Positions 1-6,392 are shown, counted from the stretch's first letter. The stretch is DNA of 24,000 nt from Actinocatenispora thailandica (GCF_016865425.1 NZ_AP023355.1:842198-866197); one strand, 5' to 3'. Notes: generated by a model not told the origin, from the sequence alone. Numbers and translations: made by a program.

Positions 1-802
1 CGGCCTGCTGGGCAGCCCCGAGGTGTTCGCCGAGGCCTACCAGGTCGGCGGCTACCTGGCCGTGAACGCCAAGTCGTTCCAGCAGTTCATCCAGGCATGC
101 GGCAAGGGCATCCAGTGCACCGCGATGGCCGCGCAGGCGATCGCCACGATCCTGCACTACACCGACGCGGACAGCGCCGGGAAGTTCGACGCCACCGACG
201 TGGCGGACGCGATGGCCTATGCGATGGGCGATCCCGGCGCCGAGCGGCCGGACGGCATCCCGAAGAAGGCACTGGGCACCAAGACGCAGCTCGACCAGGA
301 CGTCGAGAACGCCTCGCGGGGCGGCAACCAGGCCGACGCGATCGCCTTCCCGAACGACCCGAACGCGACGACGACGCACTACCCCGGCGAGGACACGACC
401 ACCACCACCTACTCGGACGGCTCGTACCGGGTGGTCGAGAGCTACCTGGTGACCGGCGCGAACGGGTCGTCCACGGTGCACCAGACGACGCGGTTCTACG
501 ACTCCAACGGCAAGGAGATCTCGAACAGCGCGCAGACCGAGGACACCGAGTACGGCAACGGCTACCGCACCACCACCCGGAGTGAAGGTGGCACCACGTC
601 GAGCACCACGATCCGTGACGACGGCTCGGTCGACGTCACCACGACCACCAAGGACGCCCAGGGCCACCCCGTCACCAAGAACTATCACGAGGATCCCCCG
701 ACGCAGCAGGACCAGCCGGAGAAGGGCCCGATCGAGGGCTGGTACGACGAGACGCACATCGACGGCAGCGGAAGCCTGGGCGGCGCCTACGGCGGGTACT
801 GA
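1..802 (+). CDS. Cassette gene A (5' partial): helical N-domain + Thr-rich beta-repeat protein, putative secreted-substrate partner
   Basis: Track ORF 23..802. The same frame stays open back to base 2 (GLLGSPE...), so the gene starts upstream of the window. It aligns along its length with the product of 3158..4117 (GYLA.N..F Q.FI...GIQC; TTTTY.DGS.RVV.SY; YD.NGKE; terminal GY). Strong G/C at third positions. Stop is TGA 800-802. Confidence 0.8.
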   Translation, partial: GLLGSPEVFAEAYQVGGYLAVNAKSFQQFIQACGKGIQCTAMAAQAIATILHYTDADSAGKFDATDVADAMAYAMGDPGAERPDGIPKKALGTKTQLDQDVENASRGGNQADAIAFPNDPNATTTHYPGEDTTTTTYSDGSYRVVESYLVTGANGSSTVHQTTRFYDSNGKEISNSAQTEDTEYGNGYRTTTRSEGGTTSSTTIRDDGSVDVTTTTKDAQGHPVTKNYHEDPPTQQDQPEKGPIEGWYDETHIDGSGSLGGAYGGY

Positions 803-846
803 CCGCCGATTCGTCCGACACCGGCGCGAGACGAGAGGCCACCGTC

Positions 847-4117: not shown

Positions 4118-4169
4118 GTCCGCTTACCAGGTCCGCGGCATCGATCGGCGAGTACAGGGGGCGTCTCGG

Positions 4170-6392
4170 ATGGGCAGTCACAACAAGGACGATCCGGACT
4201 TCGACGGCAATTTCTTCGGGTACGACACGAGCAAGAACACCGAACTGCTGGAAAACCGGCACATGGCGTACAAGATGGGGGACGGCGACGTCTCGCATTA
4301 CAACATCGAAGGCGCCAGCGGGAACAACTTCTCGAAGTACCACCCGACGATGGATCGCAGCAAGATGCCGGGCGGCAAGGACGCCTCCGGCATCAACACC
4401 GACAATCGGGGCTCGAACTGGGCCGATGCGCGCGGCAACTACGACGACGCGCACAAGGCCTGGCAGTTCGCGAACAGCTCTGATTCCAACGTTCAGAACA
4501 TCATGAAGAACAACACGATCGAGCACATCCGGCACCGGATTCTCGGTCAGAACGCCAAGGGTGCCAGCGAGGTGGCGGGCCACTGGCGCGCGGTCAAGGG
4601 CACCCTGGACGACATGAGCAAGTCCGTCCACGACCCGACGTACGCGTTGTGGAGCAGCGACAAGTGGACCGGTGACGCGGCCAAGGCCTTCTTCCAGATG
4701 GGGCCCGGAGCCACCCTCAAGTCGCTACAGGACTGGACGCAGGCCGCCCAGAACAACATCGACGCGTTCGACCATCTGGCCAGCATCATTCCCGGCTACC
4801 ACCAGCAGATCATCGACTTGTACAACGAGTACAAGGGCGCCATCAAGACCGCCTCCGACACGTACTTCGACAGCGGCCATCCCGGCTGGAACGTGTACGA
4901 CCAGCACACCCACCTGCACATCAAGAGCGCCGACGAGCTGATGTCCAAGGGCAGCCCGTCCGACCAGAACCAGTTCATCGCGGTGATGAAGGGCGTCGGC
5001 GCCATCTATCACCTGAAGGCTCAGGACATCGAGCTGAACATGGCCAACGACTACCAGACGGCCATCACCAAGCTCCAGCAGGGCCTTTCCACGACGTTCG
5101 AGGGGCCGTGGAACGCGGTCATGGACCGCCCGGGCACGGTGCCGCCGCCGAACCTCGGCGCCGGCCCCGGCGCCGGCCCGGGTGCCACGCCGAACGTGGC
5201 CAAGCCGAACGTGGCGAAGCCCAACATCGCCAAACCGAACATCGCCAAGCCGAACGTGCCGCCGCCGGACCAGCCGGTGCAGGACGCGGTGGCGCCGGAA
5301 CCGCCACCGGTCGCCCCGCCGGCTGTGTCGCCGCCGCCGGCACAGACTTCCGCGCCGCCGCCACCGGGCCCAACACCGGCTCCCGCTCCGGTGCCCGCCC
5401 CCGTGCCGCCGGTGGCGCCGACCGCGCCGCCCGCGCTCGGCCGCCGGCTCGCGCCATCGACCAGCCCCACCACCCAGAACGCGTTCCGGTCGAACGCGCA
5501 GCGGCCGCCCGGCCTCAACCGGTCCGGGGTGCTCGGCGATCGTGGCGCGAACCGGCCGTCGGCACCGAACAGCGAGGCGCCGAGCGGCCGTCCGAACGCG
5601 AGCCGCCCGCCGGCGAGCCCGGCGAAGCCGGCCCGCAACGGCAAGGCTCCGTCGCGACCGGGCGAGCCGGAGGGTGGCCGGGGTGGTGGCCGACCGGGCT
5701 CGCGCTCGCCGGCGAACCCGCAGGGCGCCAAGGGCAAGCCGGGCCAGCAACAGCAACGGCGGCCTGGTGCGCCCGGTGAGCTGGACGAGAACAGCGCGTT
5801 CCGCCGCCCGCCGGGCGGCACCTCGCCGTCCGTGCTGGACAACAAGCGGGTGCGGCCGCCGGACCCGGCGTCCGAGGACGCCCAGCGCCTGTCCGGCCGG
5901 CCGGGCAGCGGGCCGCCGAACACCACGAAGCCGGTGCTGAACAACCGCGGCCAGAAGCAGAAGAAACCGGACCGGCAGCAGTCCAGGCCGACCGGGCCGG
6001 TGAGCGGGCTGCCGATGGACAACGCGTTCGTCCCGCCGCCGAGCGGGACCGCACCGGTGCTGGAGAACCCGACGCAGTGGATGCGGCCCGGGGCGCCGGC
6101 AGACACCAGCGAGGTACCGACGAGCCTGCGCACCCCGACCCGGATGCCGAGCGGCGCGAACCTGTCGAGTGCCCGGCCGGGCACGGACAGCGCCGCCGAA
6201 CTGGCGGCGCGCAAGGCGGCACAGCGTGAGCGGGAGCGTCAGAAGAAGACCGACGAGGAGTACGAGAAGATCCGCGCCTGGATGGACGGCGAGGAAGCGT
6301 TCACGGTGGAGACCCCGGGCGGGCCGGTCGTGTCCAGTCAGGCGCCGACGCCGGAGCAGCTGGCGCACCCGAAGCCCAAACTCGGGGCCTGA
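4170..6392 (+). CDS. Cassette gene B': PPE/WXG-like helical domain + long Pro-rich region + conserved C-terminal tail
   Basis: Track ORF 4017..6392. I prefer ATG 4170 (MGSHNKDD...) by alignment with the N-terminus of gene B (…NTEL..RH..YK…KY.PTM.R..MPGGKD). WXG-type motif WTGDAAKAF at 4665-4691. Conserved tail AELAARKAAQRERE...ETPGGPVV...HPKPKLGA. Confidence 0.85.
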   Translation: MGSHNKDDPDFDGNFFGYDTSKNTELLENRHMAYKMGDGDVSHYNIEGASGNNFSKYHPTMDRSKMPGGKDASGINTDNRGSNWADARGNYDDAHKAWQFANSSDSNVQNIMKNNTIEHIRHRILGQNAKGASEVAGHWRAVKGTLDDMSKSVHDPTYALWSSDKWTGDAAKAFFQMGPGATLKSLQDWTQAAQNNIDAFDHLASIIPGYHQQIIDLYNEYKGAIKTASDTYFDSGHPGWNVYDQHTHLHIKSADELMSKGSPSDQNQFIAVMKGVGAIYHLKAQDIELNMANDYQTAITKLQQGLSTTFEGPWNAVMDRPGTVPPPNLGAGPGAGPGATPNVAKPNVAKPNIAKPNIAKPNVPPPDQPVQDAVAPEPPPVAPPAVSPPPAQTSAPPPPGPTPAPAPVPAPVPPVAPTAPPALGRRLAPSTSPTTQNAFRSNAQRPPGLNRSGVLGDRGANRPSAPNSEAPSGRPNASRPPASPAKPARNGKAPSRPGEPEGGRGGGRPGSRSPANPQGAKGKPGQQQQRRPGAPGELDENSAFRRPPGGTSPSVLDNKRVRPPDPASEDAQRLSGRPGSGPPNTTKPVLNNRGQKQKKPDRQQSRPTGPVSGLPMDNAFVPPPSGTAPVLENPTQWMRPGAPADTSEVPTSLRTPTRMPSGANLSSARPGTDSAAELAARKAAQRERERQKKTDEEYEKIRAWMDGEEAFTVETPGGPVVSSQAPTPEQLAHPKPKLGA
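5190..5264 (+). repeat. Five tandem 15-bp in-frame repeats (PNVAK PNVAK PNIAK PNIAK PNVPP) inside gene B'
   Basis: Direct reading: ccgaacgtggccaag / ccgaacgtggcgaag / cccaacatcgccaaa / ccgaacatcgccaag / ccgaacgtgccgccg. The paralog B has no counterpart at the equivalent position. Confidence 0.9.

Follow-up and report, generated by a model that had tools for sequence, protein, structure and literature searches.

The bipartite signal logic of the Esx, PE/PPE and Esp pairs of type VII secretion systems (T7SS) has been summarized before (PMC9600955, PMC8718981). A survey of ESX evolution placed ESX-4 clusters in Micromonosporales and Frankiales and found pe/ppe genes only in the ESX-4EVOL and later clusters of Mycolata; in the resulting evolutionary schemes, the ESX-4-type loci of non-mycolate actinomycetes are drawn without pe/ppe-like pairs (PMC4791881). 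Here we analyze a stretch of 24,000 nucleotides (the window; NZ_AP023355.1:842198-866197, ~70% G+C) from Actinocatenispora thailandica, a soil actinomycete of the Micromonosporaceae, which opens with four plus-strand genes in the order A, B, A', B'. Outside mycobacteria, the A-B pairs seem to correspond to the helical substrate pairs of the system (PE/PPE, Esx), though they fall outside the PE and PPE families. To our knowledge, T7SSa substrates besides EsxA/B have essentially been described only in mycobacteria and close relatives, and our search of the literature found no description of the A-B pair. The advance is the recognition of the family and of its context, and not a new principle, as a few relatives have already been tagged automatically as PPE-like or WXG100-like.

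Judged by architecture, the nearest functional analogue of A-B is the pe-ppe pair of ESX loci. In PE/PPE (PE25-PPE41, PDB 2G38/4KXR), as in A-B, the gene for a small partner of the YxxxD/E type lies just upstream of that for a longer W-x-G partner, the pair adjoins eccC and esxBA, and the N-terminal secretion heads, which are helical, lead into long low-complexity extensions at the C-terminus (PE_PGRS, PPE_MPTR). The differences lie in the heads and in the host. The head of B has an extra conserved N-terminal segment of ~110 amino acids (aa) and a 67-residue second helix, the head of A, of about 135 aa, contains [Y/F]xxxD twice in tandem, and the pair resides in monoderm Micromonosporaceae, not in a mycolate, with EspG not found. 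The WXG100 proteins EsxA and EsxB likewise divide a W-x-G in a helix-turn-helix and a YxxxD between two partners, and are encoded in the same locus, but have about 100 aa each against 320 (A) and 730 aa (B), both of which have large non-helical tails.

The EspA/EspC and EspE/EspF pairs and EspB of ESX-1 join a long W-x-G protein to an export-arm partner, and the C-terminal regions of EspB, EspK and EspI are rich in proline. Compared by the descriptions of the Esp families, A differs in not being a ~100-aa protein, and Pfam gave no Esp-family match on the A or B proteins. The LXG-Lap1 (DUF3130)-Lap2 (DUF3958) complexes of T7SSb also include a partner with an FxxxD arm, and also have polymorphic toxin/immunity genes nearby. 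In the Lap1 partners of LXG toxins this export arm, which lies beside the x-G turn of the main protein, is experimentally required (PMC9600955). These complexes are of another subtype, however, as A-B belong with T7SSa of the EccC type; the Lap proteins are small and are not secreted, B has no toxin domain, and LXG, DUF3130 and DUF3958 gave no matches on A or B.

A-B pairs adjoin type VII secretion genes

The genomic context is the decisive evidence that links A-B to a T7SS. The two B heads, used as profile query in an exhaustive search, retrieved 144 cluster representatives, 66 of them at E<=1e-10 and almost all 600-750 aa long. The architecture of the family is a head of about 270 aa, a Pro/Gly/Ala-rich tail of about 400 aa and a C-terminal module. 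The named sources are Micromonospora, Longispora, Dactylosporangium, Polymorphospora, Actinoplanes, Virgisporangium, Phytohabitans and Actinocatenispora, all Micromonosporaceae, with one outside that family, Frankia sp. QA3. The labels on these relatives are mostly "hypothetical"; two are "PPE family" in UniRef and one is "WXG100 family type VII secretion target" at NCBI. A word-indexed homolog search returned nothing with the B head and 2 proteins with the family profile, and a scan of genome contigs with patterns from the two paralogs did not find the relatives that patterns from a 6-sequence alignment found.

Six loci were fetched via B homologs and 17 came from a scan of species-representative genomes; all were searched with A and B profiles and by tblastn with T7SS core proteins. 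An A homolog lies directly upstream of the B homolog in all 21 loci for which upstream DNA is available, and eccC or esxBA stands immediately upstream of A-B in every locus examined. The loci follow two arrangements. In type 1, esxB-esxA-eccB-eccD occupy one strand and eccC-A-B the other, followed by mycP or eccE. In type 2, the order is esxB-esxA-A-B and then a WHH/SMI1-KNR4 fusion, SseB-like, YbaB-like and p384-like genes and a giant protein; the last four are syntenic with A-B in at least 12 loci. Canonical esxA and esxB are present beside A-B in every locus, so A-B do not replace the canonical pair.

In Actinocatenispora comari, whose B is 90% identical to B of the window, mycP, esxA, esxB, eccB, eccD and eccC are found in the 10 kb upstream of A. 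These core genes give strong Pfam matches, and eccC stops just before A. The region upstream of the window is inferred from this locus (L010), the synteny of which places the start of the window just downstream of eccC and its continuation in a type-2 tail. The sequence-only reading of the window had noted a resemblance to PE/PPE-type substrate pairs outside mycobacteria. Linkage to T7SS core genes, seen in 21 of 21 loci, supports a T7SS-linked pair of substrate type; membership in the PE and PPE families is not supported by Pfam, by the motifs or by the search for EspG, as described below. An equivalent of the pair was also sought in Streptomyces. It is missing from the one plasmid ESX locus inspected, where mycP directly follows eccC, which argues that the pair is specific to its lineage and is not a universal ESX-4 component.

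Gene calls in the window rest on a frame plot of third-position G+C (GC3) and on lists of open reading frames (ORFs). Gene A is present as its 3' 266 codons (2-802), as the window edge cuts its 5' end and leaves the ~55 N-terminal codons upstream; the full-length A. comari ortholog has 319 aa and the N-terminus MADRVVAKVPDIIDYAK. Gene B (847-3027) encodes 726 aa, with GAGAGG 9-14 nt before the ATG. Gene A' (3158-4117; 319 aa) has GAGGGAGGG 5' of its ATG, and gene B' (4170-6392; 740 aa) has AGGGGG in the same place. The gaps A-B, B-A' and A'-B' are 44, 130 and 52 nt, and a purine-rich sequence resembling a ribosome-binding site precedes each ATG. The A' and B' proteins match BCJ33264.1 and BCJ33265.1 exactly, both recorded as "hypothetical protein". 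For B', RefSeq gives a start at 4017 (WP_203960185.1, 791 aa), which overlaps A' by 101 nt. We disfavor it against the GenBank start at 4170, which agrees with the N-termini of homologs (M-G..Y-F-G-Y), with the third-position G+C frame and with the AGGGGG just 5'.

B proteins carry a predicted WXG100-superfamily head

The head of B (847-1761) begins with a segment Y-G-Y..N..L...HY, continues with three long helices and ends at T-F-E-G. We modeled it with AlphaFold2 (AF2) from an alignment of 27 sequences, with a mean predicted local distance difference test score (pLDDT) of 83.5 and a predicted template modeling score (pTM) of 0.78. Residues 1-110, which carry the family motifs Y-x-G-Y..N..L and H-Y, are modeled at moderate confidence. 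They are followed by a helix (120-153), a turn with W157-T-G159, a helix of 67 residues (160-226) and a return helix (252-292) that stops at a nearly invariant E-G-P. Across the 27 heads W157 is invariant and G159 is conserved, and pLDDT exceeds 90 in the turn region. The sequence-only reading had assigned a W-x-G in a helix-turn-helix to the B proteins. The confident part of the model agrees, and the W-T-G codons lie where that reading had put them (1315-1323 in B, 4665-4673 in B'). The preceding pattern GP..L....AW, which it gave for both copies, is found in B (GPVLAIQHAW) and only partially in B' (GASEVAGHW).

Profile comparisons of this head point to the Esx clan. By hhalign, the B heads match the EsxA-like proteins of the loci (64%, E 6.5e-5) with the W-x-G in register; against the EsxB-like proteins the score is 2.6% and no relationship is seen. 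The weak Pfam matches that recur among the 27 heads, to WXG100_2 (6), WXG100 (4), PPE (2) and T7SS_signal (2), all belong to the Esx clan. Up to 10 of the 27 members match WXG100 or WXG100_2, every one below threshold, and TIGR03930 matches B' at E 0.1. Sequence-profile searches of the PDB with the B heads returned only noise. The model was also compared by Foldseek with 350,542 PDB chains. PPE41 ranks first (4kxr_B, E 4e-3), and the list also contains PPE4 and four further chains of PPE41 or PPE15. The PPE41 chains score E 4e-3 to 2e-2 with template modeling (TM) scores of 0.57-0.63 normalized on the PPE chain, and the PPE matches overall E 4e-3 to 0.8 with TM 0.42-0.63. These marginal matches are suggestive, but not conclusive, of a PPE-like fold in the modeled head.

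Membership in the PPE family is a different matter. The Pfam PPE profile (PF00823) aligns to B in register with PPE helix 2 and the W-x-G, at 19.3-19.7 bits (E about 1e-3), under the cut-off of 26. It does not match B', and just 2 of the 27 family heads match at E<=1. The Pro-Pro-Glu motif is not in B: the N-terminus reads MGHQSPQSH..YGYDSN, and the Pfam alignment places profile position 18 at residue 118, with T-I-E-H as the upstream residues. Aligned by hhalign with PPE41 as a single sequence, the B head scores 2%; in it, GPGPDSMLAAARAW stands opposite QKQGPVLAIQHAW and WAG opposite WTG. No match to the EspG family was found on the genes of the six annotated loci, nor on unassigned neighbors at E<=1, a search that a very divergent chaperone could have escaped. 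B shows two marks of the WXG100 superfamily, a modeled helical hairpin with W-x-G at its turn and linkage to an FtsK/SpoIIIE-type T7SS ATPase gene. From profiles and model together we conclude that the head of B probably belongs to the WXG100 superfamily and has a PPE-like fold, and that B fails PPE membership.

The tail of B (1762-2835) is rich in Pro, Ala and Gly, presumably disordered, and has short islands in common with B'. In the two proteins the tails hold 21-22% Pro across about 420-435 aa, in line with the proline-rich tail of ~400 aa described before. The conserved C-terminal module of B (2836-3024) consists of AELAARR, a charged helix, EEAWQVETPGGPVV and then HPRPMLGA; that of B' (6195-6389) reads AELAARK...EEAFTVETPGGPVV...HPKPKLGA. 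In the family, the module (..ELAARR.. charged helix ..DEEAFxVETPGGGVL...EPKPxLGA) is found in 80 of the 104 full-length members. The start of each tail is repetitive. In B, an in-frame 12-nt repeat present four times (1939-2025) encodes (PPAA)n, and in B' a 15-nt tandem repeat present five times (5184-5281) encodes (K-P-N-V/I-A)n. K-P-N-[VI] repeats also occur in distant members of the B family, for example P0007, and repeats of this type suggest a conserved spacer of polyproline type, not random low complexity.

A proteins carry two candidate export motifs

The A proteins have 320 aa overall and a head of about 135 aa, and outside Actinocatenispora their homologs are 20-45% identical to A'. 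Conserved in the family alignment of the head are an N-terminal helix, a turn F-[PQ]-E-G in which Glu67 is invariant, a long helix and two tandem motifs. Motif 1, at the end of the long helix, closes on a family-invariant Asp (Asp111 in A') and is L-H-Y-T-D in A (152-166) and L-L-A-T-D in A' (3476-3490); it has the form Y/F-x-x-x-D in 15 of the 16 members outside Actinocatenispora. Motif 2, 22 residues further on, is Y-A-M-G-D in A (218-232) and F-A-S-A-D in A' (3542-3556). In 18 of 19 members it fits [F/Y]-[AV]-x-x-[DE], and P-x-A-x-x-P-x-G-F comes next, giving the family consensus F-A-F-x-D-P-x-A-x-x-P-x-G-F. A weak hhalign alignment of the A heads with the EsxB-like proteins of the loci sets motif 1 on the export arm Y-G-S-T-D. 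Among the EsxB-like proteins (L010, L001, L005, L006, L007, L003) the arm is YGSTD, FGTTD, FASTD, YTLSD or YGVND. As Tyr and Phe alternate there, the two appear interchangeable at the export-arm position in this clade. The sequence-only reading had seen in motif 2 a fit to the YxxxD/E export motif. The motif is present at those sites and conserved in 18 of 19 homologs, but the upstream motif with Asp111, the one that aligns with the EsxB arm, had been missed.

We found no kinship of A with PE. The Pfam PE profile (PF00934) matches 0 of 19 A homologs at E<=1, and no Esx-clan profile matches any of them. The A-head N-terminus MADKVHADCTEIIKYAG has no P-E, and the head of about 135 aa compares with about 100 aa in PE. 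The PE25 sequence used for profile comparison was confirmed to be identical to 2G38_A. Sequence-profile searches of the PDB with the A family gave noise only, and the A and B heads align with each other at 0.4% in hhalign, with no kinship seen. In a hydropathy scan of the four proteins, the maximum 19-residue Kyte-Doolittle mean is 0.83-1.08, with no transmembrane segment or signal-peptide-like core. The N-termini of all four are polar, which agrees with the claimed lack of a Sec or Tat signal in the A proteins. A sortase motif and a lipobox were not found in the A or B proteins. We read A as plausibly a helical partner that bears an export arm, in a pattern nearer EsxB than PE. On present sequence comparisons, we would class B in the WXG100 superfamily without assigning it to a family, and A as its partner, likewise unassigned; neither is PE or PPE.

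The tail of A (398-799) is a Thr-rich beta-hairpin region in which a motif G-P-[IVL]-E, such as G-P-V-E, and an aromatic residue at the C-terminus (..GGY) are conserved. The A tails contain 16-18% Thr and end in GY, as previously described. In an AF2 model of A' from the single sequence, the tail forms nine beta-strands in hairpins (pLDDT 65-85). A Foldseek search with this model returned OspA-like single-layer beta-sheet matches only, which are weak and non-significant. An RHS/YD-repeat identity for the "YD.NG" hairpins of A was considered and dropped, as Pfam gives it no support.

A proposed exported partner pair and its alternatives

The adjacency of A and B, their eccC and esxBA neighbors, the division of W-x-G and [Y/F]xxxD between them and the lack of Sec, Tat or transmembrane features lead us to propose an exported pair. 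We think it probable, though well short of assured, that A and B are co-transcribed partners dedicated to an ESX-4-like T7SS of Micromonosporaceae, a pair tandemly duplicated and diverged in this genome. For heterodimerization, export, location and the role of the tails we infer the following. The helical heads of A and B would pair side by side in the cytoplasm, which would set the W-T-G turn of B beside the [Y/F/L]xxxD motif or motifs of A and so form a bipartite signal. The complex would then be passed to EccC, encoded immediately upstream. The exported cargo would be the long tails, in A the Thr-rich beta-meander and in B the Pro-rich spacer of about 400 aa with its C-terminal module (ELAARR...W/FxVETPGGxV...PxLGA), which may reach, or pass beyond, the thick cell wall. 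With a repetitive start, short conserved linear motifs and the C-terminal module in B and the beta-meander in A, the tails resemble components of the envelope or extracellular space more than enzymes. They would plausibly tether the system at the surface or act as its adaptor there, and may do so for the giant WXG-like toxin that the conserved downstream block encodes. The synteny with the giant protein in at least 12 genomes points to such a possible role in toxin delivery; the type-1 loci, which keep the pair without the giant-protein block within 10 kb, weigh against it.

Several results count against the proposal of an exported pair. No Foldseek match of the B head reaches E<=1e-3, and I-BAR/BAR bundles are interleaved with the PPE chains at nearly equal scores. 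In A, in A' and in their A. comari counterparts, motif 1 is L-x-x-x-D, with Leu in place of the aromatic residue. The hhalign match of the A heads to the EsxB-like proteins is weak (13%, E 2e-3), and that of the A-head profile to a PE25-family profile is 0.7%, the latter profile being shallow (6 sequences, close PE25 orthologs). In the single-sequence model of A' the head is helical at a pLDDT <50, so that the helix-turn-helix nature of the A head has to be read from its conservation pattern. The known behavior of Lap1 is also pertinent. This FxxxD-bearing protein is needed for export yet stays in the cell (PMC9600955), and the motif is therefore no proof that A is exported.

The same precedent opens the way to a reading in which A, B or both are cytoplasmic targeting factors, Lap1/Lap2- or chaperone-like, that escort another substrate such as the giant WXG-like protein to EccC. 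In at least 12 loci A-B are found in synteny with SseB, YbaB, p384 and the giant protein, which suits an escort of this kind, as does the weak resemblance of the N-terminus of the giant protein to WXG100_2. The type-1 loci L001, L005, L007, L015 and L017, however, keep A-B after eccC with no giant-protein block within 10 kb. A Pro-rich tail of 400 aa and Thr-rich beta tails are moreover atypical of small cytosolic adaptors, and B itself has the W-x-G that marks exported partners; we consider a targeting role unlikely. A component of the apparatus or envelope, exported once and retained as the wall-spanning stalk of the secretion machine, would account for a single copy inside the core locus in nearly all genomes, and for the conservation of the spacer length (about 400 aa) and of the C-terminal module in 80 of 104 full-length members. 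Such a stalk seems to us very improbable, as the proteins are without transmembrane segment, sortase motif or lipobox, their tails evolve fast (ratio of nonsynonymous to synonymous substitution rates, dN/dS, up to 0.43), and Streptomyces ESX loci, on the basis of the plasmid locus, work without an A/B equivalent.

The relation to PE/PPE can be framed in two ways. If A and B were true, divergent PE and PPE homologs, the PE/PPE pair would be older than Mycolata. The gene order (small partner, then W-x-G partner, beside eccC and esxBA) mirrors pe-ppe, the Pfam PPE alignment on B at E about 1e-3 is in register through helix 2 and the W-x-G, the best PDB fold matches of B are PPE41, PPE15 and PPE4, and UniRef labels two relatives PPE. 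Homology in this strict sense is nevertheless hard to credit: the PPE scores lie under the gathering threshold and in 2 of 27 members only, Pro-Pro-Glu is absent and ~110 aa are added at the N-terminus of the B head, A gives no PE signal in Pfam (0 of 19) or hhalign (0.7%), no EspG-like gene was detected in the loci, and published surveys restrict pe/ppe to ESX-4EVOL and later clusters of Mycolata (PMC4791881). That A-B are a sister lineage, or the surviving ancestral form, of the PE/PPE-type heterodimer is doubtful, if less so. Were it true, paired long-tailed substrates would already be core to the ESX-4-like systems of monoderm Actinomycetes and would predate both the mycomembrane and the plasmid-borne ESX-4EVOL stage, the current presumed origin of pe/ppe; the pair would then be a wall-spanning extracellular arm of the secretion system in filamentous bacteria. 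Taken as the exported partner pair that we propose, A-B in Micromonosporaceae and Frankia would provide a concrete second substrate class for ESX-4-like systems, in which a protein with a W-x-G head and its export-arm partner both have long tails. They would offer a tractable handle on ESX-4-like secretion in monoderm soil actinomycetes, and an outgroup for the question of where the PE/PPE architecture originated.

Duplication and divergence of the pairs

The two pairs are paralogous along their full lengths and yet diverged, as the sequence-only reading had stated. A and A' are 46% identical across 258 aa (E 2e-70), and B and B' are 45% identical across 737 aa (E 8e-144), islands in the proline-rich tails included. 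At the DNA level, islands 71-88% identical between the copies recur at a spacing of about 3350 nt, far above chance. Measured against the A. comari orthologs, dN/dS is 0.26-0.31 for A/B and 0.42-0.43 for A'/B', values in which dS is possibly distorted by the strong GC3 bias. By these ratios both pairs appear to be maintained by purifying selection. The second pair evolves faster, and the duplication is older than the split of A. thailandica and A. comari. The faster second pair is compatible with sub- or neo-functionalization of partner specificity, and the diverged pairs of Actinocatenispora would be a natural experiment in such specificity.

Two pairs were found in Actinocatenispora only, among the loci examined. 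The draft assemblies of both species (L008/L009 for A. thailandica, L010/L011 for A. comari) break within the duplicated A-B cassette, one contig stopping about 1.1 kb upstream of A' and another inside the B tail. The duplication would thus be missed or mis-counted in draft genomes.

Neighboring genes

Downstream of B', and convergent with it, lies a single fusion gene on the minus strand (6595-7530) that joins a WHH nuclease-like domain to SMI1/KNR4 (SUKH-1). It is not a stray toxin/immunity remnant: at least 12 further loci of Micromonosporaceae have a homolog as the next gene after B, with SseB-like and YbaB-like genes behind it. Between B' and this gene we note a direct tandem repeat of 28 nt (6420-6475), 86% identical, of the form CGACC.(C/G)CGCG..CGCCGTGCAGTGCCT. 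The region 7601-10128 is a cluster of polymorphic-toxin spare parts. It holds a SUKH-3 immunity gene on the minus strand (7601-8494; E 5e-31), a plus-strand gene for a 270-aa protein that ends in a YwqJ deaminase domain (8810-9622; E 4e-20), and a second SUKH-3 gene, also on the plus strand (9586-10128; E 1e-38), which overlaps the end of the YwqJ gene.

The minus-strand gene at 10748-12430 encodes a fusion of a right-handed beta-helix with an AAA+ ATPase of the CbxX/SpoVK/EccA type. The match to TIGR03922 (EccA), at E 4.5e-73, is confined to the AAA part, and the predicted protein resembles an EccA-type ATPase in which the beta-helix replaces the TPR domain. A large beta-helix protein also adjoins mycP in a Streptomyces ESX locus (L027).

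The conserved downstream block (12562-16167, plus strand) comprises an SseB-like gene (12562-14100), a small ORF (about 14094-14468), a YbaB/EbfC-like gene (14534-15013) and the gene for a 384-aa protein, p384 (15013-16167). The giant protein follows on the same strand (16252->24000) and runs off the window, with >2580 aa inside it and 2941 aa in RefSeq. It contains two large internal repeats with Cys/His motifs and gives weak matches to WXG100_2 at its N-terminus (E 0.03) and to the YwqJ deaminase in its body (E 0.009). A minus-strand ORF of 2873 aa (14797-23418) was rejected as a shadow ORF of the giant gene, as the third-position G+C (0.88-0.98) is that of the plus-strand frame. In the type-1 loci, a conserved protein of 300-410 aa with no Pfam match adjoins eccE (L001 12287-13396, L005 14066-14965, L007 12158-13396, and others).

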